Shown: positions 7,036-34,607 of the stretch, one piece after another
How positions within the stretch are numbered: position 1 is the first letter of the stretch
Layout: each line of letters begins with the position of its first letter
Virus record (IMG/VR): IMGVR_UViG_2737471869_000016
Length of the DNA stretch: 37,383 nt
Reading direction: 5' to 3' (one strand)
Source: a virus
Lineage: Duplodnaviria > Heunggongvirae > Uroviricota > Caudoviricetes
Made by a program: the position numbers and the translations under genes
Notes under the pieces: generated by a model
The model's input: the letters and a program-made list of their open reading frames with translations, nothing else
Told to the model about the DNA's origin: nothing
The model's database searches: none

Positions 7036-7090
7036 TTTAAAATCCCTCGGCGTTCGCGCTGTGCGGGTTCAAGTCCCGCTCCGGGTACCA
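7036..7090 (+). other. att-like fragment: 3' ~55 nt of tRNA-Leu(UAA) (anticodon loop, variable arm, T-arm, acceptor 3' strand, ACCA); not an intact tRNA gene
   Basis: TTTAAAATCCCTCGGCGTTCGCGCTGTGCGGGTTCAAGTCCCGCTCCGGGTACCA: T-stem GCGGG/CCCGC around the GTTCAAGTC T-loop, ending in ACCA. No complementary 5' acceptor strand (GCCCGGA) or D-arm upstream, so this is a partial copy as left by integration into a tRNA gene. Confidence 0.8.
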
Positions 7091-7132
7091 TGGGAAACAT
7101 CAGAATAATCAAAGCAATAAGCAGTGTCGTGA

Positions 7133-7156
7133 AACCACCTTCGGGTGGTTTTTTTG
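7133..7156 (+). terminator. Rho-independent terminator
   Basis: AAACCACC-TTCG-GGTGGTTT hairpin followed by a T-run, ~40 nt after the tRNA-derived ACCA. Confidence 0.75.
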
Positions 7157-7331
7157 TGCATGCAATTCACGCCCTGTGCATATCCTGTGCTCACGGGGTG
7201 CAATGAGCTGCAATCTACAGCCTGGCAATGCCGAATTGAACGTGTCGCCTCCAGCATAGAGAACCAGGCCGCTTTGCCTGTTTTCCGGTACTCTTCCGGG
7301 AAGGGGGGCCTGCTGAGCAAACTGTAATGTT

Positions 7332-8122: not shown

Positions 8123-9355
8123 ATGATATCAATCAGATACATGAGGATAAATATGCAAAAATCCTTCCGATTCACCAATTCGTCCATCAAAGCCCTTCCG
8201 GCAAACACAGATACCAGATCTACAGAGCTTGAGGTATCTGATACCGAAGTTATTGGCCTCAAATGTCTCTCAGGTCGAACGGGTAACAAACGTTTCCTCC
8301 TGCGCTACACATTCCACGGTACCAAAAAAAGTATCAGTATTGGCAGATTCCCTGAAATTGATGTGGGGACAGCTCGCCAGATAGCTCGCCGTCATAAGGA
8401 GGCGATTGCACTTGGAAATGACCCCAAGGCAGAGCGCGATAATTATCGTGCGATGCCAACGCTTAGTGAGTTTTTTCACCAGACCTATGTTCCGTTCATC
8501 AAGCGCCATAAAAAGTCCTGGGATAAGGATGTTCAGCGTTTCACGCAATACATTGAACCTCGTCTGGGGAAGATACGTTACTGCGACCTTCGGGCCCGGG
8601 AAATCCAGCAGGTGCTTTTCGACATGCTTGAGGGTCGTATTCACGGCCAGCAGTATGCACCGTCTACCTGTAACAGGGCACTGGCTATTCTGAAAACTAT
8701 GGGGCGTTATGCGCTACGACAGGATGTCTTAGAGAAGAATGAAGCCGATAAGATCCCTTTGCTGAAGGAGAATAATCAGCGGACGCGCTTTTTTGACGCC
8801 GATGAGATCAGAAGGATCCTCGACGCTGCGGCACGATACCCCAATAAGGCCGCCGGGGGACTGATAGCCATGCTGCTGTTAACCGGTACACGCAAATCAG
8901 AAATGCTGAATGTCATGCACAAACATATTGATCGGGATAACAGGTCGTTATTCATTCCTTATACTAAGAATGGTCGCAGCAGAACTGTGTATCTCAGTGA
9001 TGTTGCATTATCCATTATTGATTCGATCCCACGGGCTGGCAGCAACCCCTATCTGTTTGCCGTAAAAGATAATGGAAAACCAATATCAGAACCCCGGTGG
9101 GCCTATGAAAAAATACTGGCAGAGTGCGGGATAGATAAAAGTGAAGTCTGTTTCCACACTACGCGCCATTCCGTCGCATCATTACTTGTCTCCAGCGGAC
9201 AGTACAGTCTGTATGACGTTAAAGCCCAGCTTGCGCATGCCAGTATTCAGAGTACGGAGCGCTACGCAAAACTGACACCAGAGCGAATGCGTCAGACCGG
9301 GCAGGGTGTTACCGACCTTCTTTTACCCCCCGTAGCTACCAGTAAAGAACAGTGA
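8123..9355 (+). CDS. int: Tyrosine site-specific integrase, P4-type with N-terminal arm-binding domain (~400 aa; likely start at the Met of MQKSFRFT, 8153)
   Basis: N-terminus FRFTNSSIKALPA (arm-type DNA-binding domain pattern), catalytic motifs LLLTGTRKSEM, HTTRHSVASLL, AHASIQSTERY. Confidence 0.9.
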   Translation: MISIRYMRINMQKSFRFTNSSIKALPANTDTRSTELEVSDTEVIGLKCLSGRTGNKRFLLRYTFHGTKKSISIGRFPEIDVGTARQIARRHKEAIALGNDPKAERDNYRAMPTLSEFFHQTYVPFIKRHKKSWDKDVQRFTQYIEPRLGKIRYCDLRAREIQQVLFDMLEGRIHGQQYAPSTCNRALAILKTMGRYALRQDVLEKNEADKIPLLKENNQRTRFFDADEIRRILDAAARYPNKAAGGLIAMLLLTGTRKSEMLNVMHKHIDRDNRSLFIPYTKNGRSRTVYLSDVALSIIDSIPRAGSNPYLFAVKDNGKPISEPRWAYEKILAECGIDKSEVCFHTTRHSVASLLVSSGQYSLYDVKAQLAHASIQSTERYAKLTPERMRQTGQGVTDLLLPPVATSKEQ

Positions 9356-10734: not shown

Positions 10735-11169
10735 ATGCAAACCCAATATGCCTTAAAACAGGCAGGATTAACTCTGCCTGTTACTAAAGAATTTCAGCAG
10801 CATATTACTACTCTTCTGGCAAATCAGGTTTTACAAAAAATAACTGAGGCAGTGGTTATTAATTTCCGTGATCCGGACTACAGTGCAGAATCCGGGGGCT
10901 TTCATCCCGTTGAAATACGGTTTATCCGTAAGAATAATGAATGGTATTTTGATTATGTCACAGATTTTAGTTATATGGGGCGTGTCTACCCTGAGCTGGA
11001 AAAAGAAATTGATTTTTGCTGGTCGGGGAATTATGTCTTCCATTATCTGATTGGGGATATTTTACTGGCAGCAGAGAGGAATGAACTCTGGTCCCTGTGG
11101 GAGCGTAATTTTATGGAGTATCTCTCTATGGGGATTTACCGGGTAACGGTAACTGTGGAAAGTTGTTGA
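10735..11169 (+). CDS. Hypothetical protein (144 aa)
   Basis: ORF-track frame; followed by terminator hairpin at 11283..11313. Confidence 0.6.
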   Translation: MQTQYALKQAGLTLPVTKEFQQHITTLLANQVLQKITEAVVINFRDPDYSAESGGFHPVEIRFIRKNNEWYFDYVTDFSYMGRVYPELEKEIDFCWSGNYVFHYLIGDILLAAERNELWSLWERNFMEYLSMGIYRVTVTVESC

Positions 11170-12659: not shown

Positions 12660-13562
12660 TTACGGGGCGTTACTTGGCTGGGTGTAACGTTTCAGTGCGG
12701 ATTGTATATCTTCAGCAAGTTGTTGACGGATTGAGGCCGGTTGTATTACTTCGACATCCGGTATCCAGTATTTCATTAAAGGCATTATCTGATCTGTGTG
12801 TGTTACACGTGATATCACCAGTAAATCGCCAGACCGGGAAGTATGAATTATTTCCTGTCCTGGCAATAGATGACGGTGGGTAAACCACGGAGCAACATGT
12901 GCGGAAACTGAAATAAGAACTTCGATAAGGTCTTCGCTATACCAGATACCATCTGTCTTTTCTATTTTTTCATTAATTTCGGGGATTATCCTGAAAGAGA
13001 TATTACTCATGCAAACGTCTTTGACAGATGAGATAACAAAGCTTTTTAATGTACTGTCATGGGCGGCAGCGAGATACCACAATCCGTTGTCATTAACCAG
13101 TCTGTATGGCTCAACAGCCCGAAACTCTTTATCTTTGTAATTAAAATTTACTTTCTTCTGTGACAGGATGGCATCGGATAATACATTCAGAATTGACATG
13201 AATGATCCGCAGTTTTCGTATGGACGTTGTTTTATCAGAAACGGGTTGTTTTTCGTGTTACCTAACAAAATACTCAGTAGTCTGTCATCCCAGCGAGGGA
13301 ACAGCCCTTCAATACCCAGGATGCGCGTGAAATGACGTAAATCAGCATTGCTGCGTTGACCGAGAACACCGTCAGACAGGCGATAGCGACCATTTTGTCG
13401 AATCAGATTAAGATAGGACAGGCGCTGAGTAAGATCACGACGGATAGTTTTTTCGCAAACGTTAAATTCCTCAGATAACTCCCGGAAGGCTAGTGACTCA
13501 CCATTGTTCAGGCGAGTTAATATCAATCCGAGTCGATATCCAAGTTTATCGTGCTTACCCAT
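12660..13562 (-). CDS. WYL-domain transcriptional regulator (HTH + WYL), BrxR/CapW-like (300 aa)
   Basis: N-terminal HTH ([20 protein letters not shown]) and central WYL signature ([20 protein letters not shown]). Subfamily assignment is by analogy. Confidence 0.8.
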
Positions 13563-14316: not shown

Positions 14317-16980
14317 TCAGGCTGGAAGACAGAATGTCGGATATTTACGGGCTATGATATCCATCAGTGACTTCATTCGCGGTGTTACAGAACTAAATTT
14401 CATTTGGGGTATTTTTGCTCTTACCGCATTTTTTACATCAGTCACCGTTACTGAATAGCCTTCTGACGTCAGCCATTCAGCAACCTCTTTACAGGAATAA
14501 CTTTTTTTATCTTTCAGCATCAGCCCCCATTGGCACTGAGTCAGCGCCCGGAGAAATAGTCTGACTAAAATATCATCACTACGTTTGCTTCCGACTTTTA
14601 GTTTCATATCAGAAAACACCGTCCGGCAATAGAGAAAATCACACCAGTCATCCCAGTCAGCCAGGGTCTTCAGTGTATGCGTTTGCCGCCAGTCGTCGAA
14701 AAGAGAGCGTTGCTGCAGAGCCTCTTCCATATTATCCCATGGGCGGGAAAACATCAGTAAATGCCCTTCATTCATGGCGGGCTGTACGGGCTGGCGTTTG
14801 AAATCGAATTCCAGATTAAGACGGATATCCTGTTCCCGGGATACCAGATCGCTTTCCGACAGCCACATCTCACGCGTTGATATCAACGTACTTCGGGATA
14901 ACGTCTGACCGGGTAAACGATTAAGGTAAAGATCTACCATATAGTCGTTATAGTCACTGCGTGGAATATCGGCAGGAGGTTTGACGCCAGCCCTGGCATG
15001 AACAACAGGTTTTCCCTGAATAGCTCTATAGGTTAACTGCCCCCGGGTTTTCATGGCGATAAGCTGGCTGACTTCATGCTTACATGTCAACATTGATGAA
15101 CCCGGATCAACAATATCGCACAGCGACTGGAAGCGGGAAGACAGTGGACCGCTCATGTTTATCTTGTTAAGTGGGCAATTTGTCAAAAAGCCATCGGTTG
15201 TGACGCTGACAACCGATGAATCAGAAGGCAAAGCATTCATGAGTTCCCCGGCAACGGCGCGGATAAATCCCGTTACATGCGCAGCAAAGAATGGCTGAGT
15301 AACCGATGATGGCGGGAGGGATCTGTTTAATCCACGGGCAGTATCAAAGGCGGTTTTGGCGCGAAGGCCCTGAGCAAGTTTGCCATAAAGCGAGTTGCCA
15401 ATTTCTTTCCAGAATTTCTCCTCCAGAGAACCTTTAATATGGCGATTACGGTTCTCACGGACCTGTTGAACAAAGGGAAGAAACACCGATGTTGATTCGC
15501 TGTTATGTGGGGAGATGTCACAGATCCAGGGGACGATGATCCCATTATGGATCGTCATCTCTGCCCCGAGCGACAGAGCAAGTTCGATTTCAGGTGCCGT
15601 TGCCCATGATTCGCCACTTAATGGAAAGAATAACCCATATTGATCGGTCCGAACCGGCAGGCTGGGATAGGGAACTGATTCCGGGAACCGAAATGTGACA
15701 AGCGCAAATCCCATTACATGCCCACAGTAATCGTCCGGATTTTTACTGAGGCGGATGTTCCCGTAATCGGGTGTGAGGATATCTAATAGCCCGGTGGTAT
15801 ACGCTCCAGCCAGATCGTAGTCATACCAGTGATCAGACGGTGTAACCCCCATCATAAAACACTCATTGCGTCCGCCGTGGTAACAGTTGATCGGGAACGT
15901 TTCAAACAACTCTCTTGAAGGAACACTGGCGGGGTTTTTAATCGTCCGGAATGCCTGTTTTTCCGTGAGCCAGAGTTCACGGGTTTTAATGTGTGTCCCA
16001 AGGCAGACTTCAGGAGACATATTGTTTTCTTTAAGTGTTTTGGTGAACCGTGAAACTGCCATCGCCCCGATGGTGGCGGGGACACGATCAATCATCAGCT
16101 CCCGGGCGCAAAAATTGCGAACCTGTAAAGCATAACGAACCGCAATCTCGGCATCCCGCAGAGCATAGGCTTCAAACCCTGCTCTGTCGCCCAGAAGATA
16201 TTCACGCATATTGGTTATGGAATAAGGTGCAGGAATGGTGAGTTTGGGAAGACCCAGTAATTCACCACATTCAGCCAGACCCATACCCCCGGGAGTGATA
16301 AGCAGTGTATCGATGAAAGCTACGTTACTGCAACGCGGAGGGGAAGTTCGTTTGTCAAACATTATCTGTTCAGTCTTTACGCGACGTTCCTGCTGTTCAT
16401 CAAAATCGATACCGTAACGATTTTTGAAGCTGCTGACAGTACCGCGTATTCCTTTCAGAAGAATTTTGTAGTCTGACCAGAAATTGGCAAAGGAGGCGAT
16501 ATCCGCACGAATGAAATGCGCATATATATTAATAATACCGGGCCATTTTGTAATCACACCCGTTTCAAGAAGCGGTGTAATCGTTTGACAGAGAAATTCC
16601 TTAAAAGACAGCCGGGATTTTTTCTGTGAGTCAGGTGGATAGATAATGTTCGATATACCTGTATTATCGGGTAAGACAACATAACTCTGATATGACAGAA
16701 TATCATTCTGTCGTGTTTCAGGGTTGAAAACATATTCGGTATCAAAACCGATATGGAGCGTCAGGTCGTTTGAAATCACAGACACGTTTTTTGATGCAGG
16801 TGGCATCACAGGATAATCATCAAGCGTTTTAGGTCTTTTACGATTGAGCACTGGCTCTGAAGTCACGGACTGATACCCCGAGGCGGCAGCGAGGATATCC
16901 TGCAAATTATGGCTCATAGTTAACTCCGAAAAAATGCCGGGAGCTGTGTCCCGGCATAAAGAATCAAGATTTAATAACAT
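14317..16980 (-). CDS. Family-B DNA polymerase of the primer-independent type (piPolB), pipolin hallmark (887 aa in ORF track; likely start at internal Met 16917, RBS GGAG)
   Basis: PolB motifs read in the translation: Exo I IGFDTEYV (DxE), Exo III YALRDAEI (Yx3D), motif B KEIGNSLYGKLAQG (Kx3NSxYG), motif C-like VTTDGF, and AMKTRGQ, i.e. the KTRG motif that I recall replacing KxY in piPolBs. Neighbours are integrase and AlpA/Xis-like genes. Confidence 0.85.
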   Translation of the reverse strand: MLLNLDSLCRDTAPGIFSELTMSHNLQDILAAASGYQSVTSEPVLNRKRPKTLDDYPVMPPASKNVSVISNDLTLHIGFDTEYVFNPETRQNDILSYQSYVVLPDNTGISNIIYPPDSQKKSRLSFKEFLCQTITPLLETGVITKWPGIINIYAHFIRADIASFANFWSDYKILLKGIRGTVSSFKNRYGIDFDEQQERRVKTEQIMFDKRTSPPRCSNVAFIDTLLITPGGMGLAECGELLGLPKLTIPAPYSITNMREYLLGDRAGFEAYALRDAEIAVRYALQVRNFCARELMIDRVPATIGAMAVSRFTKTLKENNMSPEVCLGTHIKTRELWLTEKQAFRTIKNPASVPSRELFETFPINCYHGGRNECFMMGVTPSDHWYDYDLAGAYTTGLLDILTPDYGNIRLSKNPDDYCGHVMGFALVTFRFPESVPYPSLPVRTDQYGLFFPLSGESWATAPEIELALSLGAEMTIHNGIIVPWICDISPHNSESTSVFLPFVQQVRENRNRHIKGSLEEKFWKEIGNSLYGKLAQGLRAKTAFDTARGLNRSLPPSSVTQPFFAAHVTGFIRAVAGELMNALPSDSSVVSVTTDGFLTNCPLNKINMSGPLSSRFQSLCDIVDPGSSMLTCKHEVSQLIAMKTRGQLTYRAIQGKPVVHARAGVKPPADIPRSDYNDYMVDLYLNRLPGQTLSRSTLISTREMWLSESDLVSREQDIRLNLEFDFKRQPVQPAMNEGHLLMFSRPWDNMEEALQQRSLFDDWRQTHTLKTLADWDDWCDFLYCRTVFSDMKLKVGSKRSDDILVRLFLRALTQCQWGLMLKDKKSYSCKEVAEWLTSEGYSVTVTDVKNAVRAKIPQMKFSSVTPRMKSLMDIIARKYPTFCLPA

Positions 16981-17602
16981 TTACTACAGATTTGAAAATA
17001 TCGGTTTTGCGTGATTCATCATCTGCATGGATAAATGAAACGAGGTTCCTGCCTGCTTTAATCAGGATGCCACGTTGCGTCTTTTCCACAGATGGGGTGA
17101 CGCGTGCAGATAACAGACAATTTTCATGTAACTGAAGAAACTTTTTTGAGGCGTAGCCGCCATGCAGTCGGGCTTTAATTTCATTATACATATCATCAAG
17201 AGAACCGGGTTCTCCTGATTCACTCAATACCGGATAGCCCTTCTTATCAAAAAGGCTGAGGATAGATTTACCATCATGTTCGAACAAGGTAACACCGTAA
17301 ATGTATTTCATTCGAAAGGTGAGGGCGTCGGTGGTGTAGATCTCCTCCTGACAACTGAAATTTTTGAGACGCCTGGCTAATTCATTAAAAACAGCACGAG
17401 CAGTAGCCGTGTCCTGCAGGGTGTAGGTATAAAGTACGAAGCCATCTGTGCCGATGAGCTTTACTAAGTTGTCCATAATCGTGATAGCGAGAACTAATGC
17501 AAAGGACAGATATTTTTCATCGTTGTCTACAGCTGTGCTTGCTGATTCGGGAATAATGTTCAGTGCATTATTAGCGTTATTTTCCGTGTTCTTAGTAACC
17601 AT
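16964..17602 (-). CDS. Hypothetical protein (212 aa) between the AlpA/Xis-like gene and piPolB
   Basis: ORF-track frame; overlaps the AlpA-like gene by 11 nt; no motif recognised. Confidence 0.6.
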   Translation of the reverse strand: MVTKNTENNANNALNIIPESASTAVDNDEKYLSFALVLAITIMDNLVKLIGTDGFVLYTYTLQDTATARAVFNELARRLKNFSCQEEIYTTDALTFRMKYIYGVTLFEHDGKSILSLFDKKGYPVLSESGEPGSLDDMYNEIKARLHGGYASKKFLQLHENCLLSARVTPSVEKTQRGILIKAGRNLVSFIHADDESRKTDIFKSVVNVIKS

Positions 17603-17792
17603 TTATATCACCTTTAAGTTTGTTTTGACGATGTGCATTTTCCCACTCAACAATATCGTCAAGAGAGAATCGTATAGCCCGCCCAATTCTGATGAAGGGC
17701 GGGAGTTTTCCGGGGTTGCGCGATATATCTGACGCAACCGTGGATGCAGAAAGATTAAATCTTTCTGCGAACTGCTTAATGGTTAAATACAT
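17592..17792 (-). CDS. AlpA-family HTH protein / putative excisionase (66 aa)
   Basis: YLTIKQFAERFNLSASTV ... IRIGRAIRFSLDDIVEWE matches the AlpA/Xis pattern; immediately downstream of the integrase. Confidence 0.75.
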   Translation of the reverse strand: MYLTIKQFAERFNLSASTVASDISRNPGKLPPFIRIGRAIRFSLDDIVEWENAHRQNKLKGDINGY

Positions 17793-17934: not shown

Positions 17935-19071
17935 TCATAGGTTCATTTTTGTGTCATAACTTTCTATGACCTGAGAAACCACTGCGTGTGATGTCGCTGC
18001 ATTGTGAAAAGCGTAGCGACGGGTCGCCGTGAGTGAATGGTGATTTAGCAGATGGGAAGCGATTGCAATATCCCCGGTCGCCTGTAGTACCCGGGTGGCA
18101 AAGGTACGGCGCAGGTCATGCATCCGCAGGTTATCAATGTTGGCATCCCGACAAATACGGGCAAAGGTTGCACGCGGATATGCCAGAGGGCGGGCATTGT
18201 CGGTTAGTTGTGGAAAAATGTAAGTTTTGCTGAGCATCAGGTCTTGCTGGCACTGGACAACTGCAATGGCTGGAGGTGCAAGTGGGCAGGTGAAAGGGTG
18301 TCCGGACTTTGTATCAGGCAGTATGAGTTGATGCATATCCGGGTGCCAGTACTCCCATTTCAGGGTACATACCTCACCAATACGCATCCCCGTATAAAGA
18401 GCAAGCAATATAGAATCAGCTGCCGGTGTTTGCAGCGCTGTTGCCGCGTCAATAAAGCGCGGGATTTCTGTCGCTGATAGTGTGCGATAGCGAATGTTAT
18501 TTTCTTTCAGATAGCGGACATGTGACATCGGGGAATGTGTGATCCATCCAGCACGTACTGCCAGAGAGCATATTTTGGACAATATTGCGAGGATACGGTT
18601 TACTGTTGACGGACGTAATTTTTCCCGTAAGCCAGCAGCATATTGTTCTAGTTCTCCTGCCGTGATGTCGCGAAGTTGCCGCTTGCCCCAGAACGGGCGA
18701 ACGTAGAGGTTGAGTTTTGACAACTCTGACTGAGGACTCTTTTTATACAACTGCAAATCCGGTAGCCACAGGTCATTGATGGCCTGTTCCACAGTGAATC
18801 GACGGGACTGAACCGCAAGACGATTTTTATCAGCAAGCAGTTTCATCACATGCTGACGGGCATCCTCAACGCAGAGCTGAGGGAACTGACCCAGGGTTTC
18901 ATATATACGCTGATTGTTTATAGTGGTACGAAAGGCCAGCGTGATCCGATTGGGATACACCAGAGCACGCAGGTTTTGGCAGTGAATATCACGGTATTCC
19001 TGACAACCCGTGAGGGGATGTGGAAGTTGGTGAATTGATTTGTTGCTGAAACGCAGATCCAGAATAGGCAT
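17935..19071 (-). CDS. int: Tyrosine site-specific integrase (378 aa)
   Basis: Catalytic motifs LALYTGMRIGEV, HDLRRTFATRVL, LLNHHSLTATRRY (R..HxxR..Y). Confidence 0.9.
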   Translation of the reverse strand: MPILDLRFSNKSIHQLPHPLTGCQEYRDIHCQNLRALVYPNRITLAFRTTINNQRIYETLGQFPQLCVEDARQHVMKLLADKNRLAVQSRRFTVEQAINDLWLPDLQLYKKSPQSELSKLNLYVRPFWGKRQLRDITAGELEQYAAGLREKLRPSTVNRILAILSKICSLAVRAGWITHSPMSHVRYLKENNIRYRTLSATEIPRFIDAATALQTPAADSILLALYTGMRIGEVCTLKWEYWHPDMHQLILPDTKSGHPFTCPLAPPAIAVVQCQQDLMLSKTYIFPQLTDNARPLAYPRATFARICRDANIDNLRMHDLRRTFATRVLQATGDIAIASHLLNHHSLTATRRYAFHNAATSHAVVSQVIESYDTKMNL

Positions 19072-22389: not shown

Positions 22390-23913
22390 ATGAACGACAA
22401 AATCAGTCAGGACACGATCAACAAAGCCCTGTGGGCCGCGTGTGATACGTTCCGTGGCACCATCAGTGCTGATACCTATAAAGACTTTATCCTTACCATG
22501 CTGTTCCTCAAGTACATTTCAGATGTCTGGCAGGATCACTATGACGAATACAAAGAACAGTATGGCGATGCGCCGGAACTGATTGAAGCGATGATGGCCA
22601 ACGAGCGTTTTGTACTGCCAAAAAGTGCCAGCTTTTATGCGCTGTACGAACGCCGCCATGAGCCGGGTAACGGTGAGCGTATCGATCAGGCGCTGCATGC
22701 GATTGAAGAAGCCAACGGCACCAAACTGAAAGATGCCGGGAAAAGCGTGTTCCAGGATATTTCGTTTAACACTGACCGCTTGGGTGAAGAAAAACAGAAG
22801 AACACCATCCTGCGCCAGCTGCTGGAAGACTTTGCCGGTGAAGATCTTAACCTGAAGCCAAGCCGTGTAGGTACGCTGGACGTTATCGGTAACGCTTACG
22901 AATATCTGATTAAAAACTTTGCCGCCAGCGGTGGGCAGAAAGCCGGGGAATTCTATACGCCGCCGGAAGTTTCGGACCTGATTGCAGAACTGCTCGATCC
23001 GCAACCGGGTGATACCATCTGTGACCCTGCCTGTGGTTCTGGTTCGTTGTTAATGAAGTGCGGGCGTAAGATTGTCTCCGGGCATGAAAGCCGTAACTAT
23101 GCTTTGTTCGGTCAGGAAGCGATTGGCTCCACGTGGTCGCTGGCGAAAATGAACATGTTTCTTCACGGCGAAGACAACCACAAAATCGAGTGGGGCGATA
23201 CCATTCGTAACCCGAAGCTACTCGATAAAAATGGCGACCTGATGCTGTTTGATATCGTTACCGCTAACCCGCCGTTCAGTCTGGATAAGTGGGGCCATGA
23301 TGAGGCCGAGAACGATAAGTTTGGTCGTTTCCGTCGCGGTGTACCGCCGAAGACTAAAGGAGATTACGCCTTTATCTCGCATATGATAGAAACCCTGAAA
23401 CCGGGAACGGGTCGTATGGGCGTAGTTGTGCCACACGGTGTGCTTTTCCGTGGCTCCAGCGAAGGTAAAATTCGCCAGAAACTGATCGACGAAAATTTGC
23501 TGGATGCGGTAATTGGTCTGCCGGAAAAACTGTTCTACGGTACGGGGATTCCGGCTGCGATTCTGATTTTCAAAAAGCAGAAAGTGGATGACAAGGTGCT
23601 GTTTATCGACGCCAGCCGTGATTATAAGGCTGGTAAAAATCAGAACCAGCTCAGCGCTGAAAATATCCAGAAGATCGTTAACACCTATCGAGAAGGCGAT
23701 AACGTCGAGAAATACGCCTATCTCGCCAGCCTGAAAGAGATTCAGGACAACGACTATAACCTGAATATTCCGCGCTATGTTGATACCTTTGAGGAAGAGG
23801 AAGAGGTCGATTTGCTGGCCGTGCGTAAAGCGCGAGAGCAACTGAAGGTGGAACTGGCGAAACTGGAAACGGAGATGGCAGGTTATTTGAAGGAGTTAGG
23901 TTATGGTGCCTAA
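22390..23913 (+). CDS. hsdM: Type I restriction-modification system, DNA methyltransferase subunit (507 aa)
   Basis: SAM-binding motif I DPACGSGSLL, EFYTPPEV, catalytic motif IV NPPF (IVTANPPFSL). Confidence 0.95.
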   Translation: MNDKISQDTINKALWAACDTFRGTISADTYKDFILTMLFLKYISDVWQDHYDEYKEQYGDAPELIEAMMANERFVLPKSASFYALYERRHEPGNGERIDQALHAIEEANGTKLKDAGKSVFQDISFNTDRLGEEKQKNTILRQLLEDFAGEDLNLKPSRVGTLDVIGNAYEYLIKNFAASGGQKAGEFYTPPEVSDLIAELLDPQPGDTICDPACGSGSLLMKCGRKIVSGHESRNYALFGQEAIGSTWSLAKMNMFLHGEDNHKIEWGDTIRNPKLLDKNGDLMLFDIVTANPPFSLDKWGHDEAENDKFGRFRRGVPPKTKGDYAFISHMIETLKPGTGRMGVVVPHGVLFRGSSEGKIRQKLIDENLLDAVIGLPEKLFYGTGIPAAILIFKKQKVDDKVLFIDASRDYKAGKNQNQLSAENIQKIVNTYREGDNVEKYAYLASLKEIQDNDYNLNIPRYVDTFEEEEEVDLLAVRKAREQLKVELAKLETEMAGYLKELGYGA

Positions 23914-25135
23914 AGGTTGGATGCTTAAACAGTTGTCGGATATTGTAAAAGAAAAAATATCTTATGGAATTGTTCAGGCGGGACCACATATTCCTAATGG
24001 AATACCTTATATAAAAAGCTCTGACATTAGAGGGGCTATTGATCCTGCGTCACTGCAGAGGACAGCGCCTGAAATACATTATAAGTACAGACGTTCAGCT
24101 GTGCACCCTGGGGATATTATATTCTCCTTGAGAGGCAACATTGGCGAGACAGCCATAGTGCCTTCTAATTTATTAGAAGCGAATTTAACGCAAGGTACAG
24201 CACGGATATCAGTATCTGGTGATCAATGTAATGAGTTTTACCATCAACAATTTGCGATGGATAAATTACGTAATTATATTAATTCCTTGAGCAAAGGGAG
24301 TACATTTAAGGAAATTTCACTAGAAGAGCTACGTAAAGTTAAAGTTCTGTGTGCCCCCCTTCCTGAACAAAAGAAAATTGCTCAAATCCTGTCCACCTGG
24401 GATAAGGCAATTACGGTGACGGAAAAGCTTCTCGTCAACAGCCAGCAGCAGAAAAAAGCCCTGATGCAGCAATTGCTTACCGGGAAAAAACGCCTGCTGG
24501 ATGAGAATGGGGTGAGGTTTAGCACGGAGTGGGAGTTTAAAAGAATAAGTGAAATAGCAACGCGAGTTCAACGTAAAAATGATGCTGCCGAACATCCTAT
24601 TTTAACAATATCATCTTTGTCCGGATTTGTCCGGCAGGATGAGCGTTATAGTCGTTATATGGCGGGAGAAAGTGTGAAAAATTATATCCTGCTTAAAAAA
24701 GGTGAGTTTGCATATAACAAAGGAAACTCAAAAACATACGAGTTCGGATGTATTTTTGACCTTGAAGCATATGAAGCAGGACTGGTACCCCATGTCTATG
24801 TTTGCTTTAGATTAAAAAATGGGCTCAGTCACCGTTATTTTAAATATTTATTTGAGGCTGATTATCTCAAGCCACAGTTAGGGGCGTTAGTTAATACTGG
24901 GGTCCGAAATAATGGTTTATTAAATATCAAACCGACAGAGTTTATGCAAACAAAAGTCCCTGTTCCATGTTTTGAAGAGCAGGAAAGCATCGCTGATATG
25001 TTATATAACTCCAGCAGGACGATACGTGTTCTTCAGGATAAACTCGCCTGCCTGAAAGACGAGAAAAAAGCCCTGATGCAACAGCTACTGACTGGCAAAC
25101 GTCGTGTTAAGGTCGATGAGGCGGTTGCCGTATGA
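23903..25135 (+). CDS. hsdS: Type I restriction-modification system, specificity subunit (410 aa)
   Basis: Duplicated conserved segments KKALMQQLLTGKKRL (central) and KKALMQQLLTGKRRV (C-terminal) separating two target-recognition domains; start overlaps hsdM stop. Confidence 0.9.
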   Translation: MVPKGWMLKQLSDIVKEKISYGIVQAGPHIPNGIPYIKSSDIRGAIDPASLQRTAPEIHYKYRRSAVHPGDIIFSLRGNIGETAIVPSNLLEANLTQGTARISVSGDQCNEFYHQQFAMDKLRNYINSLSKGSTFKEISLEELRKVKVLCAPLPEQKKIAQILSTWDKAITVTEKLLVNSQQQKKALMQQLLTGKKRLLDENGVRFSTEWEFKRISEIATRVQRKNDAAEHPILTISSLSGFVRQDERYSRYMAGESVKNYILLKKGEFAYNKGNSKTYEFGCIFDLEAYEAGLVPHVYVCFRLKNGLSHRYFKYLFEADYLKPQLGALVNTGVRNNGLLNIKPTEFMQTKVPVPCFEEQESIADMLYNSSRTIRVLQDKLACLKDEKKALMQQLLTGKRRVKVDEAVAV

Positions 25136-25815
25136 AACTGACGAAAAGCGGTCCACTGACTGACCGGGAAATCGACTGGCTGGAAGAAATATTAATGAAG
25201 TATGGAATGGATGATTCTGTACTCTGTTTCTCTGAGCTGGATGGATTGCTGACGGCGATTTTATCAGGTCCAAATATGGTTTCACCCAATATCTGGCTGA
25301 GTGCTATTTGGGGAGGAGGCGATTATCATCCGAAATGGTCATCTGAGAGAGAGATGGAGCGTTTTGTCAGTCTGTGTTTTCAGCATATGAACGATATCGC
25401 TGGTTGCCTTTATGACGCCCCTGAACTGTTTGAGCCGATTTTCAATGAGCGTGAGGTAAAGGGGGAAAAATATACCATTGTGGAAGAGTGGTGTTTTGGT
25501 TATATGAAAGGAAAGTCACTGGATGACTGGTCTGGTCTTCCCGGTGAGTTACGGCCTTCTCTGGAAGTGATCGCTCTTCATGGCGTGGAGAAGAATTTTC
25601 CTGTACTTGAGAAAATGACCGGAGAGCAGTTTGAGAAAAGTATTTCCCTTATTCAGCCTGCTGCACTGGCACTTTATCAGTACTGGTTGTCAGTGAGAAT
25701 GTCAGAGGCATCATCCCGGCCTGTTCCAGTGAAGGGGGCAGAAAACATGCCCGGGCGAAATGACCCGTGTCCGTGTGGCAGCGGTAAAAAATTTAAGAAG
25801 TGCTGTCTGCATTGA
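25132..25815 (+). CDS. YecA-like (UPF0149-type) protein with C-terminal SEC-C metal-binding motif (227 aa), embedded in the hsd operon
   Basis: C-terminal GRNDPCPCGSGKKFKKCCLH is a SEC-C zinc-binding motif; overall length and layout resemble E. coli YecA as I recall it; ATGA start/stop overlap with hsdS. Confidence 0.7.
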   Translation: MKLTKSGPLTDREIDWLEEILMKYGMDDSVLCFSELDGLLTAILSGPNMVSPNIWLSAIWGGGDYHPKWSSEREMERFVSLCFQHMNDIAGCLYDAPELFEPIFNEREVKGEKYTIVEEWCFGYMKGKSLDDWSGLPGELRPSLEVIALHGVEKNFPVLEKMTGEQFEKSISLIQPAALALYQYWLSVRMSEASSRPVPVKGAENMPGRNDPCPCGSGKKFKKCCLH

Positions 25816-25864
25816 TGAATCTTCATGTGACCAGTAGCGAGTAGCGCCAGAAAGAAAAGGATTA

Positions 25865-28800
25865 ATGATGAACCAGACGTACACGCCAAAATTCCAGGAA
25901 GAATACAGCGCCAAAATTCCGGCACTGACGTTACTGACCAGCCTCGGCTGGACGTTTTTATCTCCGAAACAGATTATGGATTACCGGGGCTATAAACAGG
26001 ATGAGGTGGTGCTGCGTCCGGTTCTGCGTGAAGAGCTGTCGAAGCGTTCCTTTATGGCGGGTGGCAAAACCTGCCAGTTATCGGAAAAAGCACTGGATAA
26101 CCTGATATCACAGGTCTGTTCTCCGGCGCTCAATGAAGGGCTGCTCAAAGCCAATGAACGGATGTATAACCATCTGCTCTACGGTATCGCCGTCACGGAG
26201 TTTGTCGATGGCAAGAAGGTGAACCCCACCATTGCGCTGATCGACTGGGAACATCCGGAAAATAACCAGTTCCATTTTACCGAAGAATTTACGGTATTGC
26301 GGTCAGGCGGTGTCGAAACCCGCAGGCCGGATATTGTGTGTTTTGTGAATGGTATCCCGCTGGCCGTCATTGAAGCGAAAAGCCCGGCGGGTCACGGCAA
26401 GAAAGGGCCAACCATTGACGAAGGGATATCCCAGAGTATCCGCAATCAGCTCAACGACGAAATCCCGCAGCTGTTTGCTTACAGCCAGATATTACTGTCG
26501 ATTAACGGGCATGACGGGCGCTACGGTACCTGTCATACACCAATGAAATTCTGGGCGGCATGGCGCGAAGAAGATATTACTTACGCGCAGATGTATGCGC
26601 TGCGCAACCATAAGTTATCGACTGAACAAATTCATGCGTTGTTTGATCATCGTCCTTCAGTCGATCTCAAATGGTATCAACAGTTAATCGATGGGGGGGA
26701 ACTGGCAGTCAGCGGGCAGGATAAGCTGCTCATCAGTCTGCTTTCACCGGAACGTCTGCTGGAGATGACCCGCTTCTTCACCCTGTTTGATAAAAAAACC
26801 GGAAAAATTGTTGCCCGCTATCAGCAGGTGTTCGGGATAAAAAGACTGCTGGAACGCATCAGTACCCGCAGACCAGACGGGGGCAGGGAAGGTGGGGTGA
26901 TCTGGCATACCACGGGGTCAGGTAAATCTTACACCATGGTGTTCCTCAGCAAGGCGCTGATTCTTCATGACAGCCTGAAGCGGTGTCGTATCGTGGTGGT
27001 GACGGACCGTATCGATCTTGAAGAACAGCTCAGCAATACCTTTGCATCCGGCGGCGAGTTGGCCGGGAAAAAAGACAAAGCCAATGCAATGGCGACATCC
27101 GGGCAGATGCTGGCGAAACAGATTGGCTCCGGTAAAGAACGCATCATTTTCACCCTAATCCAGAAATTTAATTCAGCGACAAAACTTCCTGAATGCGTCA
27201 ATACCAGCCCCGATATCATCGTTCTGATTGATGAAGGACACCGTAGCCAGGGTGGTGAGAACCATGTGCGAATGAAACTGGCACTGCCGAACGCCGCCTT
27301 TGTAGCATTTACTGGTACGCCATTGCTAAAAGAAGATAAGACCACCAATAAATTCGGACCGATTGTCCACGCTTATACCATGCAGCGAGCGGTAGAAGAT
27401 AAAGCCGTTACACCTTTGCTGTATGAAGAACGTATTCCCGACCTTGAGGTTAACGATCGGGCAATAGATGCCTGGTTTGATCGTATTACCGATGGGTTAA
27501 GCGAAGCGCAAAAAGCCGACCTTAAGCGTAAATATGCCCGTAAAGGTGAGGTTTATAGTGCAGATGATCGCATCCGTCTGATCGCACTCGATATCGCCAC
27601 GCACTTCTCGAAGAATATTGATGAGGGACTGAAAGGCCAGCTTGCCTGCGACAGCAAGATTTCCGCCATCAAATATAAAAAGTATCTTGATGAAGCCGGG
27701 TTGTTTGAGTCAGCTGTAGTTATCAGCCCGCCGGATACCCGGGAAGGGAATACTGAGGTGGATGAAAGCAAACTGCCGGAAGTGACGAAATGGTGGAAAG
27801 ATAACGTCGGCACGCAGGATGAGTCTGTGTATACCCGCAATATCATCAGTCGTTTCGATACCGATGAGAAGCTCAAATTGCTGATAGTCGTTGATAAACT
27901 GCTCACCGGGTTTGATGAGCCGAAGAATACCGTGCTGTATATCGACAAGCCGCTTAAGTCCCACAACCTTATCCAGGCGATTGCGCGGGTGAACCGACTG
28001 CATCCACTGAAAAAGTTCGGTCTGCTGATTGATTATCGCGGTATTCTGGCTGAGCTGGACACGACTATCGGCAAATATCAGGACCTCGCCTCCCGAACTC
28101 AGGGCGGATACGATATCAAAGATATTGACGGGCTGTACAGCGCCATGAGCTCTGAATACAAGCGTCTACCGCATCTGTATAACCAGCTGTGGGCCATATT
28201 TGCCGGTGTTAAAAACAAAAATGATACTGAGCAGTTACGTGCGGTACTGGTGCCTAAAATGGAAGAACGTGACGGAGAGATGGTCGATATCCATCAGAAA
28301 ACCCGTGATGATTTCTTCGAGGCGTTAACGGCCTTCGCCGGATGCCTGAAAGTGGCACTGCAGTCCGCCACCTTCTTCACCGACAAAAGCTTTACGGAAC
28401 AAGACCGAAACCTCTATAAAGAAACCGTAAAACAGATGTCCAGCCTGCGCCAGTGGGCGATGCAGGTCAGTGGAGAGCAGGTCAATTATGACGACTACGC
28501 GGAGCAGGTGAAAAAACTGCTGGATAAGCATGTCACCGGCGTTGAGGTTCGTGAACCGGATGGCGTGTATGAAGTCGGTAAAATGGGCAAGAGCGAAAAG
28601 CCCTCAGAGTGGGACAACAATAAAACCCGCAATGAAACCGACATCATTAAAACCCGCGTGACGAAGATGATTGAGCAGGAATTGCGTGATGACCCGTATG
28701 CTCAGGAGGCATTTTCAAAACTCCTGCGTATGGCTATCGAAGAGGCTGAAAAACTGTTTGACCATCCGCTGAAACAGTACCTTTTGTTCCGTGAATTTGA

Positions 28801-29152
28801 AGAACAGGTTGAAGCCCGTAAGCTCAGCGATATCCCGGATGCACTGGCGGTAAACAAGCATGCTCAGGCGTATTACGGTGTATTTAAAAAAGAGCTACCT
28901 GAGGTTTTTGCGGTAAACGACGTTCAGGTGCAGGATAAGTGGACGAAGCTGGCTTTTGAAGTGGACAACATTATCGTCAAAGCGGTGGCAGAAAACTCCC
29001 TGAACCCCCAGGACATTGAGAAAGTCGTTAAGACAAGTCTGCTACCACTGCTGTTTACGGCCTGCCGGGAAATTGGTGCCGGAATGAATCAGGTTAACCG
29101 TATTGTGGAAACCATCATCCAGATACTGCGCGTTGGTTTGATGAAATCATGA
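25865..29152 (+). CDS. hsdR: Type I restriction enzyme, R (endonuclease/translocase) subunit (1095 aa)
   Basis: Helicase motif I HTTGSGKSYTM, motif II DEAH-type VLIDEGHRSQ; size typical of HsdR. Confidence 0.95.
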   Translation: MMNQTYTPKFQEEYSAKIPALTLLTSLGWTFLSPKQIMDYRGYKQDEVVLRPVLREELSKRSFMAGGKTCQLSEKALDNLISQVCSPALNEGLLKANERMYNHLLYGIAVTEFVDGKKVNPTIALIDWEHPENNQFHFTEEFTVLRSGGVETRRPDIVCFVNGIPLAVIEAKSPAGHGKKGPTIDEGISQSIRNQLNDEIPQLFAYSQILLSINGHDGRYGTCHTPMKFWAAWREEDITYAQMYALRNHKLSTEQIHALFDHRPSVDLKWYQQLIDGGELAVSGQDKLLISLLSPERLLEMTRFFTLFDKKTGKIVARYQQVFGIKRLLERISTRRPDGGREGGVIWHTTGSGKSYTMVFLSKALILHDSLKRCRIVVVTDRIDLEEQLSNTFASGGELAGKKDKANAMATSGQMLAKQIGSGKERIIFTLIQKFNSATKLPECVNTSPDIIVLIDEGHRSQGGENHVRMKLALPNAAFVAFTGTPLLKEDKTTNKFGPIVHAYTMQRAVEDKAVTPLLYEERIPDLEVNDRAIDAWFDRITDGLSEAQKADLKRKYARKGEVYSADDRIRLIALDIATHFSKNIDEGLKGQLACDSKISAIKYKKYLDEAGLFESAVVISPPDTREGNTEVDESKLPEVTKWWKDNVGTQDESVYTRNIISRFDTDEKLKLLIVVDKLLTGFDEPKNTVLYIDKPLKSHNLIQAIARVNRLHPLKKFGLLIDYRGILAELDTTIGKYQDLASRTQGGYDIKDIDGLYSAMSSEYKRLPHLYNQLWAIFAGVKNKNDTEQLRAVLVPKMEERDGEMVDIHQKTRDDFFEALTAFAGCLKVALQSATFFTDKSFTEQDRNLYKETVKQMSSLRQWAMQVSGEQVNYDDYAEQVKKLLDKHVTGVEVREPDGVYEVGKMGKSEKPSEWDNNKTRNETDIIKTRVTKMIEQELRDDPYAQEAFSKLLRMAIEEAEKLFDHPLKQYLLFREFEEQVEARKLSDIPDALAVNKHAQAYYGVFKKELPEVFAVNDVQVQDKWTKLAFEVDNIIVKAVAENSLNPQDIEKVVKTSLLPLLFTACREIGAGMNQVNRIVETIIQILRVGLMKS

Positions 29153-29904
29153 GTGAAAAAGAATCGCCATCAATGAAAGCGTTACGCATTGTCTATGGTG
29201 ATGAGGTCATCGTCGTACAGTGTGCTCCGCGTCAGGTCGTAAAGGGCAGGGTGCTCATCAAGGTTTATCCGGACTGCCGGGTTGTGGCCTCTGTACCGCC
29301 TGAAACACCGGAGCACGAGGTATTGTCTGCGCTGAAAAAACGTGGGCGCTGGATATACCAGCAACTGCGTGATTTCAGGGAGCAACAGACACACATTGTT
29401 CCGCGTCAGTATGTCAGCGGAGAAAGCCATTATTATCTCGGTAAGCAATATCAGTTGAAAGTGACAGAAGACGCTACTGTGCCGCAACGAGTGAAAATGT
29501 TGCGTGGGCGTCTGGAAGTGACTGTCAGACACAAATCGGCAGAAAAGATTAAAGCCTTGCTGGCTGAATGGTATCGGGAACGTGCCAGAGATGTTTTTCA
29601 GCGCAGGCTTGATTTACTGATTCCGCAGACCCTTTGGGTCAGTGAGCGTCCTCCGATACGTCTGCGGGCGATGCAAACGCAATGGGGCAACTGTTCAGCA
29701 AAAGGCTGTCTGACCCTGAATCCATGGCTGGTTAAGGCATCCTCAGAATGTATCGATTATGTTTTGCTACATGAGTTATGCCATGTGGCTGAACACAACC
29801 ACAGCGAGGAGTTTTACCGTCTGATGGGGCAGGTTATGCCGGGCTGGGAAAAGGTTAAGAAGCGACTGGATGGTATGGCTGGGATGTTGTTGGCAGATAT
29901 GTAA
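29149..29904 (+). CDS. HExxH zinc metallohydrolase, YgjP/DUF45-like (251 aa)
   Basis: HELCHVAEHNHS (HExxH plus downstream His); start overlaps hsdR stop. I recall COG1451-type hydrolases being frequently linked to hsdR. Confidence 0.7.
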   Translation: MSEKESPSMKALRIVYGDEVIVVQCAPRQVVKGRVLIKVYPDCRVVASVPPETPEHEVLSALKKRGRWIYQQLRDFREQQTHIVPRQYVSGESHYYLGKQYQLKVTEDATVPQRVKMLRGRLEVTVRHKSAEKIKALLAEWYRERARDVFQRRLDLLIPQTLWVSERPPIRLRAMQTQWGNCSAKGCLTLNPWLVKASSECIDYVLLHELCHVAEHNHSEEFYRLMGQVMPGWEKVKKRLDGMAGMLLADM

Positions 29905-29929
29905 CTTATCAATATGAGTTCTTAAGAGT

Positions 29930-31801
29930 TTGGTCAGTCTCGTTAATGCAGGGAGTATAATAATGAGTAAGTTAGATAATAAAATTGAAGCACGCCATCG
30001 TAATTTGTTTGATGTTCTAAATGCGCAAAAATATACCGTTGATTACTTTCAGCGCGAGTATAGCTGGGGTGAGAAACATATTGAAGAGTTGGTTACAGAC
30101 TTAACATCTGCGTTTCTCAATGAATACACAGTCGGTGATTCTCGGGAGCAGGGTGAAAACTACAATAATTATTACTTAGGACCATTTGTTGTGAGTAGTA
30201 AAGATGGAAAGCGGAGTATTATTGATGGTCAGCAACGACTGACTTCATTAACTTTATTTCTAATTTACCTCCATAATCTTCAGAAAGAACTTAAATATGA
30301 AGAGAAAATAGAATCAATGATTTTCTCCGAGCTACGTGGCAGCAAATCATTCAATATAGTAGTTGAAGACAGAATTCCTTGCATGGAAGCATTGTTTAAT
30401 TTTGGTAGCTATAGTTTAGTTGATGGGGATGATGAGTCAACCCATAACATGGTGGAGAGATATCAGAATATCACAGATGCTTTTCCTGATGAGTTAAAAG
30501 GTCAGGCTTTTCCTTTTTTTATCGACTGGCTTAAGTATAACGTTATTATGGTTGAGATAGTCGCCTATTCAGATGAAAACGCATATACCATCTTTGAGAC
30601 TATGAATGACCGAGGATTGAATCTTACTCCGTCCGAAATGCTTAAAGGTTTTTTACTTTCACGTTTTCATCAGGGAGATAAACGCCAAAAGGCAAATGAA
30701 CTCTGGAAAAAAGCGATGATGGATTTAAAAAGCTATGACAAAGATGAAGACCAACGTTTTTTCCAGTCATGGTTGCGTGCTCAATATGCTGATACAATAC
30801 GCCCGGGTAAAGCTGGTTCAAAAAATGAAGACTTTGAAAAAATAGGTACGCGTTTTCATAGCTGGGTTAGAGATAATCTTCAGGCGGTGGGATTGGACCC
30901 AGATAATGGTGAGACATTCGAACGATTTATACAAAAAAACTTTTTGTTTTATTTGAATGCCTATACACAAATACTGAATGCTGAGAGAGTATTAACGCAC
31001 CAACTGGAATATGTATTTTATATCCACCATTGGGGTATTGCACCTACTTTAAGTTTCCCTTTGATGTTGGCTCCATTAAATGTAGATGACAGTCCTGAGG
31101 CTGTGAAAGCCAAAATAAACCTAGTGGCTCGCTATATTGAAACGTTTGTTGTTCGTCGTTCTGTTAATTTCCGAAAATTCTCTGCCAGTTCTATTCGTTA
31201 CACAATGTACAGTCTTGTTAAAGAGATTCGTGGTAAAAGTTTTGAAGAATTAAAAGATTTATTATCTAAGAAGTTATCCGAAATGCCAGATACTTTTGCA
31301 GGAATGGAAGAGTTTCGTCTCCATGGTCAAAACCATCGTTTTGTGAAGTTTTTGCTTTCTCGTATAACTGCGTGGGTTGAGCAACAAGCCGGAATGAGTA
31401 CAACCTTCATTACATATTATCAGCCAGAACACGGTAAGCCATTTGAAGTCGAGCATATTTGGGCCGATAAATATGAACGTTACTCTGATGAGTTTGAACA
31501 AGAGCACGAATTTAACAATTACAGAAATCGCTTAGGTGATTTGGTTTTATTACCTAGAGGCTCAAACCAGTCATATGGTGATTTGTGTTACGATCAAAAG
31601 CAACCTCATTACATCAAAGAGAATCTCCTGGCTAAATCGTTATGCCCATTGGCATATATGAATAACCCTAATTTCAATCAGTTGAGAAATGTATTCGGAT
31701 TGCCTTTCAAACCACATGATTCATTTAAAAAACAAGATGTCGATGAACGACAGTCTTTGTATAAAATAATTTGTGAGAATATTTGGGACCATAATTTATA
31801 G
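29930..31801 (+). CDS. DUF262/DUF1524 two-domain protein, GmrSD-like putative type IV (modification-dependent) restriction endonuclease (likely start at 29963)
   Basis: N-terminal DUF262/ParB-like motif QREYSW...IIDGQQRLTSL; C-terminal His-Me-finger-like region EVEHIWADKYE ... GDLVLLPRGSNQSYG. Internal Met (MSKLDNK) has a GGGAG SD. Confidence 0.75.
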   Translation: MVSLVNAGSIIMSKLDNKIEARHRNLFDVLNAQKYTVDYFQREYSWGEKHIEELVTDLTSAFLNEYTVGDSREQGENYNNYYLGPFVVSSKDGKRSIIDGQQRLTSLTLFLIYLHNLQKELKYEEKIESMIFSELRGSKSFNIVVEDRIPCMEALFNFGSYSLVDGDDESTHNMVERYQNITDAFPDELKGQAFPFFIDWLKYNVIMVEIVAYSDENAYTIFETMNDRGLNLTPSEMLKGFLLSRFHQGDKRQKANELWKKAMMDLKSYDKDEDQRFFQSWLRAQYADTIRPGKAGSKNEDFEKIGTRFHSWVRDNLQAVGLDPDNGETFERFIQKNFLFYLNAYTQILNAERVLTHQLEYVFYIHHWGIAPTLSFPLMLAPLNVDDSPEAVKAKINLVARYIETFVVRRSVNFRKFSASSIRYTMYSLVKEIRGKSFEELKDLLSKKLSEMPDTFAGMEEFRLHGQNHRFVKFLLSRITAWVEQQAGMSTTFITYYQPEHGKPFEVEHIWADKYERYSDEFEQEHEFNNYRNRLGDLVLLPRGSNQSYGDLCYDQKQPHYIKENLLAKSLCPLAYMNNPNFNQLRNVFGLPFKPHDSFKKQDVDERQSLYKIICENIWDHNL

Positions 31802-31859
31802 CAAAGTTGGGGTGTTAATTAATGTGTAATGGCATCATGATTTTTAAAAGGAGGTTGAA

Positions 31860-32987: not shown

Positions 32988-33091
32988 ATTAATATGACTG
33001 CGTTATGATGATCTTTTTTAAATTGTGGATTATTAGGCACGAAATTAAAGTGTCGAATAGTCAGATATTGGAATAAAAGGAGAATATTCAA

Positions 33092-34270: not shown

Positions 34271-34301
34271 TAACTTTGCAGTCATATAAATATAGCAAAG
34301 G

Positions 34302-34337
34302 ACAGGTAGGCCTCCGTGAGAGGGGGGACTTACCTGT
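34302..34337 (+). terminator. Possible terminator hairpin after the Mrr-like gene
   Basis: ACAGGTAGG-(~18 nt)-CTTACCTGT imperfect inverted repeat followed by GTTGTTCTG (weak U-tract). Confidence 0.3.
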
Positions 34338-34581: not shown

Positions 34582-34607
34582 GCCCAATTGGTGATGAAGA
34601 TCACCAA
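34582..34607. promoter_or_regulatory. Candidate operator: palindrome TTGGTGAT-GAAG-ATCACCAA overlapping a CCAATTGG box; a second GCCAATTGGTGG box at 34475..34486
   Basis: Perfect 8-bp inverted repeat with 4-nt spacer ~100 bp upstream of the sigma-factor gene; duplicated palindromic CCAATTGG core; TGGTATACT extended -10-like element between the two boxes. Confidence 0.4.

Follow-up and report, generated by a model that had tools for sequence, protein, structure and literature searches.

A stretch of 37,383 nucleotides, catalogued in IMG/VR as virus record IMGVR_UViG_2737471869_000016 and referred to below as the window, carries on its minus strand a gene that an earlier note, prepared from the sequence alone, had assigned to a primer-independent family-B DNA polymerase (piPolB). 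We conclude with high confidence that this gene, at 14317..16917, encodes an intact piPolB of 866 amino acids and is the hallmark gene of an Escherichia coli pipolin located at tRNA-Leu. The identification draws on the predicted fold of the protein, the alignment of its catalytic residues, the presence of both signatures published for piPolBs and the agreement of its residue numbers with those of a characterised enzyme. The window is a piece of E. coli chromosome, and its positions 7036-37383 are 100% identical to strain 08-00022 (CP013662.1), which PMC7385651 lists in its supplementary file 3, taken here to be a table of pipolin-bearing GenBank strains. This copy is already known, in that the enzyme class, its E. 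coli representative, the element type, the insertion site, the cargo and the exact element have all been published.

The reading frame contains all five motifs that had been quoted from it, namely IGFDTEYV (residues 56-63), YALRDAEI (251-258), KEIGNSLYGKLAQG (504-517), VTTDGF (572-577) and AMKTRGQ (621-627), where residues are numbered, as throughout, in the 866-residue form counted from the ATG at 16917. The earlier note had taken the KTRG within AMKTRGQ as a mark of piPolBs, and this agrees with the published description, in which SxTTDG and KH-X8-KTRG are the piPolB signatures (PMC5695915). Both signatures are present in the protein, the former as VTTDGF at 572-577 and the latter at 613-626. 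In an alignment of 58 relatives at 29-48% identity, D368, K504, T574, D575, G576 and K613 are invariant, as are G512 and Y373, and D59, E61, Y251, D255 and R625 are each retained in 57 of the relatives. Within KH-X8-KTRG, K613 is found in 58/58 and R625 in 57/58 sequences, H614 is found in 48/58, and position 623 is K in 29 sequences and R in 27. Seven of the residues in these motifs (D59, E61, D368, K613, H614, K623 and R625) coincide with positions that were mutated in the characterised E. coli enzyme.

The predicted structure places the protein among family-B polymerases. AlphaFold2, supplied with the 58-sequence alignment, gave a model with a pLDDT of 89 and a pTM of 0.87, with disorder only at residues 1-46 and 166-177. 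Comparison of the model with the PDB by Foldseek yielded 197 matches at E<=1e-3, and the best 50 of these 197 are all family-B polymerases or engineered variants. The top nine are chains of phi29 DNA polymerase (E 5.6e-16 to 2.5e-13, TMt 0.61-0.65), and archaeal and eukaryotic PolBs rank behind them (TMt about 0.3). The protein shows its best homology to PolBs (phi29, Foldseek E 5.6e-16) and to no unrelated family, which indicates that the protein as modelled is a family-B polymerase by fold. A profile of the protein was also aligned by hhalign with the single sequence of phi29 DNA polymerase (taken from EU771092), and the resulting E of 8.5e-4 is supportive together with the fold match. At default settings, Exo II, Exo III and motifs A and B fell on phi29 D66, Y165/D169, D249 and K383, and the alignment stopped at motif B; a greedier setting reached the C-terminus and added Exo I (D59/E61 on D12/E14) and motif C (T573/D575 on D456/D458). 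The PolB assignment by motifs made in the earlier note is borne out by this alignment of Exo I-III and Pol A-C to the catalytic residues of phi29. In the model, KTRG sits at the bend of a beta-hairpin (610-623, 626-632) that closely follows motif C, a predicted location that is consistent with the published alignment (PMC5695915) on which the equation of KTRG with the KxY position rests. The TPR1 and TPR2 insertions are shared by piPolBs and protein-primed PolBs; on this question, the best fold is that of phi29 (TMt 0.64), ahead of RNA/DNA-primed PolBs (TMt about 0.3), and the A-to-B and B-to-C motif spacings are phi29-like, a comparison made at the level of fold and spacing rather than by per-residue structural alignment.

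The motif content of the protein goes far beyond what chance would give, and its relatives are abundant. When 1.84 billion cluster representatives (50%-identity clusters) were searched exhaustively with HMMER, 2035 clusters were returned at E<=1e-3, 563 of them at E<=1e-30, and most full-length relatives among the matches listed align from about residue 50 to about residue 862. A PHROG scan gave two weak matches to DNA polymerase families (4.6e-6 and 1.2e-4), a PADLOC scan gave no match for the protein, and no solved piPolB structure was found in the PDB searches. Several results weigh against the identification. The Pfam scan scored DNA_pol_B_2 at 14.5 bits, below the cut-off of 25.8, and the NCBIfam scan gave no match. 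A PDB sequence search with the single protein returned no relevant entry, its one match (0.64) being due to chance, and a PDB search with the 58-sequence profile found nothing at E<=1. The greedier hhalign run left the KTRG hairpin unaligned and set the phi29 KxY opposite residues of about 657-659, in a tail where that alignment is unreliable. Furthermore, identity to the reference enzyme is judged from residue numbers and from the reported similarity of E. coli piPolBs, which are >98.8% identical to one another. The curated models miss the protein because the clade is divergent, so that their silence is not evidence against PolB membership. The profile search proposed in the earlier note had a divided outcome, with Pfam and NCBIfam below threshold or empty, and with fold and profile alignment on the side of PolB.

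The biochemistry of this enzyme class is known from the piPolB of E. coli 3-373-03_S1_C2, which copies templates faithfully, proofreads, displaces strands, bypasses abasic sites and initiates de novo on single-stranded DNA with no sequence specificity and better with Mn2+ (PMC5695915). In that enzyme, D59A/E61A abolishes the exonuclease and D368A is polymerase-dead (PMC5695915). The published mutants also include K613A, H614A, K623A and R625A, which showed that K613 is required for priming and that K623 and R625 are required for primer extension (PMC5695915). Since all seven mutated residues stand at the same number in the protein from the window and E. coli piPolBs are nearly identical, we infer that this copy would behave like the reference enzyme, primer-independent synthesis included. 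The protein has a phi29-like PolB architecture, in which D59/E61, D139 and Y251/D255 make up the predicted 3'-5' exonuclease site, D368 of motif A and D575 of motif C serve the polymerase site, and KH-X8-KTRG stands in place of the KxY primer-terminus motif.

For the element as a whole, a mechanism can be proposed in which the two tyrosine recombinases and the AlpA-like excisionase would excise the pipolin at its attachment (att) repeats of about 130 bp and piPolB would then prime and copy the excised circle without a primase, and in which the cargo half of the element would supply anti-phage defence. The excision and the copying step are unproven in the literature. In the 2020 survey, pipolins were seen only in the chromosome and in single copy, and excision was negligible (PMC7385651), no excision or episomal replication has been observed for E. 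coli pipolins, and the biological role of piPolB was described in 2022 as 'still unclear' (PMC9710591), all of which also count against a self-replicating element. These same reports favor a second explanation, in which a genuine piPolB serves the host or the island through restart of blocked forks, damage tolerance or defence, and the pipolin is essentially immobile. Consistent with such a role, expression of piPolB leads to better survival after mitomycin C or ultraviolet (UV) treatment (PMC5695915), a WYL regulator, whose domain is linked to the sensing of damage or defence, is encoded 750 bp downstream of the piPolB stop on the same strand, and a terminator-like hairpin stands directly before the gene, which is consistent with tightly limited expression. 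However, the inheritance of piPolB is strongly linked to that of integrases and att, and pipolins lacking piPolB alone are under-represented (PMC11551731); piPolB also occurs on circular plasmids for which no other replicase is named (PMC11551731), proteins 99-100% identical in other genera point to recent horizontal movement, and the defence models of PADLOC did not match the protein. We regard a benefit to host or island as possible but somewhat unlikely as the full account, and it is compatible with self-replication of the pipolin rather than exclusive of it.

The distribution of the gene was examined in complete E. coli genomes, where it is present in 296/5426 (282 with >=80% coverage), always on the chromosome and at >=95% DNA identity. 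The exact protein sequence occurs on 168 contigs. Proteins that are 99-100% identical were found in Cronobacter sakazakii, Salmonella enterica, Enterobacter hormaechei, Enterobacter roggenkampii, Citrobacter koseri and Escherichia marmotae, which fits the transfer between genera that has been reported (PMC11551731). The near-identical piPolBs of other species are mostly labelled only as 'hypothetical protein'.

We also evaluated where the gene begins. An 887-aa mechanical open reading frame does exist on the minus strand at 14317..16980, as the earlier note stated, but that length did not hold, and the predicted coding region is 14317..16917, of 866 aa. The note had rightly presented the start as ambiguous: the first ATG (16980) creates a 17-nt overlap with the upstream open reading frame at 16964..17602, and the ATG at 16917 has a GGAG Shine-Dalgarno sequence. 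It is the second codon that RefSeq and natural variants favor. RefSeq places the start at 16917 for the gene of the 100%-identical strain 08-00022, under the product name 'DNA polymerase', and nearly all independent gene calls of the same protein give 866 aa. The published mutant residue numbers fit the 866-aa numbering only. In strain TC24, ACG replaces the ATG at 16980 and a 4-nt insertion in the loop of a hairpin breaks the frame, and in strain CT02 the spacer carries a 3-nt insertion, whereas the Shine-Dalgarno sequence and the ATG at 16917 are unchanged among diverged E. coli copies. No Shine-Dalgarno sequence was found before the ATG at 16980, and the extension itself contains the hairpin and its T-run. 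Based on these observations, the gene is predicted to start at ATG 16917 and to encode 866 aa, and the extension to 16980 is predicted to be non-coding. That the full 887-aa product is made from ATG 16980, in translational overlap with the upstream gene, is accordingly very improbable: the frame is open from 16980 and a few automatic calls at ENA and JGI agree with it, but these stand against the variants, the numbering and the great majority of the calls listed, and even in the 866-aa form residues 1-46 lack conservation and are disordered in the AlphaFold2 model.

The hairpin, which separates the stop codon of the upstream gene from the piPolB Shine-Dalgarno sequence, has a local folding energy of -20.5 kcal/mol (z -2.66). 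Its stem core CCGGG/CCCGG and the T-run are conserved in E. coli variants, and the loop is 6, 9 or 10 nt long. This pattern suggests a structural RNA or a terminator element that would limit read-through from the upstream operon, and the conserved hairpin and T-run may thereby gate transcription or expression of piPolB.

The upstream gene encodes a 212-aa orphan that sits where phi29 places its terminal protein gene. Its relatives amount to only 14 clusters, and those with a source name are all E. coli. We considered whether the polymerase could be a protein-primed PolB of the phi29/Bam35 type, with the orphan as its terminal protein in the order of phi29 gene 3 and gene 2. In favor of this, phi29 DNA polymerase is the closest solved fold, the small upstream gene on the same strand recalls the phi29 order, and the orphan has no recognisable domain. 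In contrast, att direct repeats and tyrosine recombinases mark the element as an integrated island and not as a linear replicon with terminal inverted repeats, KTRG for KxY and the TTD motif C separate piPolBs from protein-primed PolBs (PMC5695915), priming by the E. coli enzyme requires no protein (PMC5695915), and piPolB is widespread whereas the named relatives of the orphan are all E. coli. Protein priming with the orphan as terminal protein is disfavored by the island context, by KTRG and TTD and by protein-free priming, and we hold it to be highly unlikely.

Motif C raised the further question of whether the protein is a decayed, catalytically dead PolB relic that has lost the first aspartate. 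The motif reads TTD and not DTD, with Thr in place of the first Asp, such that the second carboxylate alone is available for metal binding. A metal-binding motif, which the earlier note had expected as DxD, DTD or an equivalent, is present, but in the TTD form, a hallmark of the family that is described as common to all piPolBs and as no obstacle to activity (PMC5695915). The reading of VTTDGF as decay, to which the sub-threshold Pfam score might be added, is ruled out by the published activity of the TTD-bearing E. coli enzyme (PMC5695915) and has next to no probability given that TTD is invariant in 58/58 diverse relatives, the remaining catalytic residues are conserved, the model is confident and the reading frame is intact and full length, with its exact sequence on 168 contigs.

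Beyond the polymerase core, a C-terminal module of about 140-230 residues is conserved family-wide, with an invariant D705, a K707-R708 pair and a helix-turn-helix (HTH)-like segment, 'WLTxxGYPTxxxxxKNAxR'. The module is confidently modelled, yet it has no match among solved structures and no counterpart in phi29 DNA polymerase. It is conceivable, although rather doubtful, that the module might enable de novo chain start or action at particular sites. Its role might be to bind the template or the initiating nucleotide, or to recruit a partner. Were this so, KTRG alone would be insufficient to explain priming.

The surroundings of the gene agree with the placement of the window in a pipolin, as the earlier note had proposed, in that the att repeat, the two integrases, the excisionase-like HTH protein, DUF2787 and the WYL regulator match the published core (PMC11551731). 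The core order is att, recombinase, two orphans, DUF2787, a DUF726-like hydrolase, WYL, piPolB, the 212-aa orphan, the AlpA-like protein and the second recombinase. The recombinases were assigned as IntSXT and IntP2 by position and synteny with PMC11551731 rather than by phylogeny. The downstream part of the att repeat contains a hairpin, AAACCACCTTCGGGTGGTTT, and a T-run, which are presumably the terminator of the tRNA operon. The distal att lies outside the window; in 08-00022 it is flanked by mzaE and yecA at a distance of about 38.6 kb from the tRNA, and its identity to the proximal copy at 7036-7165 is 96% over 132 columns. The features described here are collected in Table 1.

Table 1. 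Features of the window, with coordinates on the whole stretch and residues in the 866-aa numbering
Feature	Position	Strand	Remarks
piPolB coding sequence, 866 aa + stop (14317-14319)	14317..16917	-	Sequence identical to ANP07743.1 / WP_040090354.1
Family-specific C-terminal module, residues 640-866	14320..15000	-	Beta-rich at ~672-725, helical at ~730-858
KH-X8-KTRG, K613-H614 ... K623-T-R625-G626	15040..15081	-	Sequence KHEVSQLIAMKTRG at 613-626
Pol motif C, piPolB form, V572-T-T-D575-G-F	15187..15204	-	SxTTDG type; T573/D575 on phi29 D456/D458
Pol motif B, K504-EIGNSLYGKLAQG	15367..15408	-	K504 and G512 invariant; aligned to phi29 K383-LMLNSLYGK
Pol motif A, D366-Y-D368-L-A-G-A-Y373	15799..15822	-	D368 and Y373 invariant; D368 aligns to phi29 D249
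Exo III, Y251-A-L-R-D255	16153..16167	-	Aligns to phi29 Y165/D169; 57/58
Exo II, H134-F-I-R-A-D139	16501..16518	-	Aligns to phi29 HNLKFD66; D139 is D in 51/58, E in 6/58
Exo I, D59-T-E61	16735..16743	-	D and E in 57/58; aligns to phi29 D12/E14
21-codon 5' extension, predicted non-coding	16918..16980	-	Intergenic spacer between upstream orphan gene and piPolB
Shine-Dalgarno GGAG	16924..16927	-	6 nt before ATG 16917; unchanged across four aligned E. coli variants
Terminator-like hairpin	16934..16957	-	9-bp stem, 6-nt loop, then TTTTTT; T-run reaches 16928
212-aa orphan, immediately upstream of piPolB	16964..17602	-	No Pfam, PHROG or PADLOC match
P2-like prophage genes	1-7035		Part of replication endonuclease (left edge), repressor-type HTH 4475-4879, DUF2511, integrase 5928-6929
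Pipolin att direct repeat (~130 bp)	7036..7165	+	3' 55 nt of tRNA-Leu (7036-7090) and ~75 nt downstream
Tyrosine recombinase next to att, IntSXT-type position	8153..9355	+	Annotated as site-specific integrase; Phage_integrase 4.5e-22 (frame 8123-9355), Arm-DNA-bind_3 3e-14
DUF2787 protein, pipolin core	10735..11169	+	Pfam 1.1e-39
HTH-WYL-WCX regulator, pipolin core	12660..13562	-	Pfam; synteny with PMC11551731
AlpA/excisionase-like HTH_17 protein	17592..17792	-	Pfam 5.9e-9; AlpA family in TC24 annotation
Second tyrosine recombinase, IntP2-type position beside excisionase	17935..19071	-	Pfam Phage_integrase
Defence cargo module	22390..37383	+	Type I restriction-modification (hsdM, hsdS, hsdR), M48 peptidase, nucleases, mza
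HEC-06-like DUF262 protein	29963-31801	+	Also similar to SspE and Orf5 models
PDC-S26-like PD-(D/E)XK protein	31860-32987	+	Cargo
Mrr-like nuclease	33092-34270	+	Also ZorD-C-terminal-like; cargo
mzaA	34708-36759	+	Followed by start of ATP-binding gene

The cargo is of a kind already described, as type I restriction-modification, HEC-06, PDC-S26, Mrr-like and mza genes have been named as pipolin cargo (PMC11551731). Three candidate defence genes, the DUF262/HEC-06-like, the PDC-S26-like and the Mrr-like, adjoin one another at 29930-34270 (+), and in 08-00022 IS421 interrupts mza just beyond the end of the window. The interval from the second integrase to the type I restriction-modification genes encodes two large hypothetical proteins, at 19214-20344 (-) (376 aa) and 20851-22083 (-) (about 410 aa), and the Pfam, PHROG and PADLOC scans gave no match to either. 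The DNA around them is AT-rich (GC 0.34-0.36 at 19-22 kb), which suggests cargo that was acquired separately.

The left flank of the window, 1-7035, does not belong to the pipolin and represents one end, that of the early region, of a P2-like prophage. Prophage and pipolin form a tandem insertion at one and the same tRNA-Leu. ARAGORN reported no tRNA for the window, since the inserted prophage leaves only the 3' fragment of tRNA-Leu beside the pipolin and the 5' half lies beyond the prophage. The junction between prophage and pipolin is common to about 25 complete E. coli genomes. Prophages co-integrated beside pipolins have been described before, mostly with core-deleted pipolins (PMC11551731), and the pipolin core is complete here despite the co-integrated prophage.

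The wider interest of piPolBs is that they break with the principle that a replicative DNA polymerase is unable to begin a chain, and their use in primer-free genome amplification is under development. Knowledge of piPolBs is not extended by this copy, whose practical value is a correction of annotation (866 aa, start at 16917). The 'hypothetical protein' labels, together with Pfam and NCBIfam models that do not reach the family, suggest that similar genes are missed by routine annotation.

The closest comparison is with the piPolB of E. coli 3-373-03_S1_C2 (PMC5695915), which comes from the same species, tRNA-Leu site and element type and has the same motifs and residue numbers; its length is the same as judged by residue numbering, and no functional difference is known. 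The pipolin of 08-00022 (PMC7385651) is 100% identical over 7036-37383, comprising att, core genes, piPolB and defence cargo. The two differ on the left, where an intact tRNA-Leu abuts the pipolin in 08-00022, whereas in the window the two are separated by the P2-like prophage (1-7035) and the tRNA gene is reduced, next to the pipolin, to its 3' 55 nt. With the gammaproteobacterial pipolins (PMC11551731), the element shares a conserved core near the tRNA and exchangeable distal defence cargo, with no structural difference, except that co-integration of a prophage accompanies mainly core deletions there and a complete core here.

Among polymerases of other elements, those of phi29 and Bam35 are the best structural match (TMt 0.64), and their Exo I-III and Pol A-C motifs align with those of the piPolB. 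The spacings of motifs A-B and B-C are 136 and 71 residues here and 134 and 75 in phi29, and the literature attributes strand displacement to both piPolBs and protein-primed PolBs. In contrast, identity is about 13%, KTRG replaces KxY and TTD replaces DTD, no terminal protein is needed, and piPolB has an extra helical C-terminal extension of about 140 residues and a disordered N-terminus of about 50 residues. The host element also differs, being an integrative island for piPolB and a linear genome for phi29 and Bam35. A functional likeness exists with PrimPol and the archaeo-eukaryotic primases (AEP), in which one polypeptide starts and extends chains and helps restart after damage (PMC5695915, discussion). 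However, these enzymes have an unrelated fold, no proofreading exonuclease and distributive synthesis, whereas piPolB is a full replicative-type PolB.

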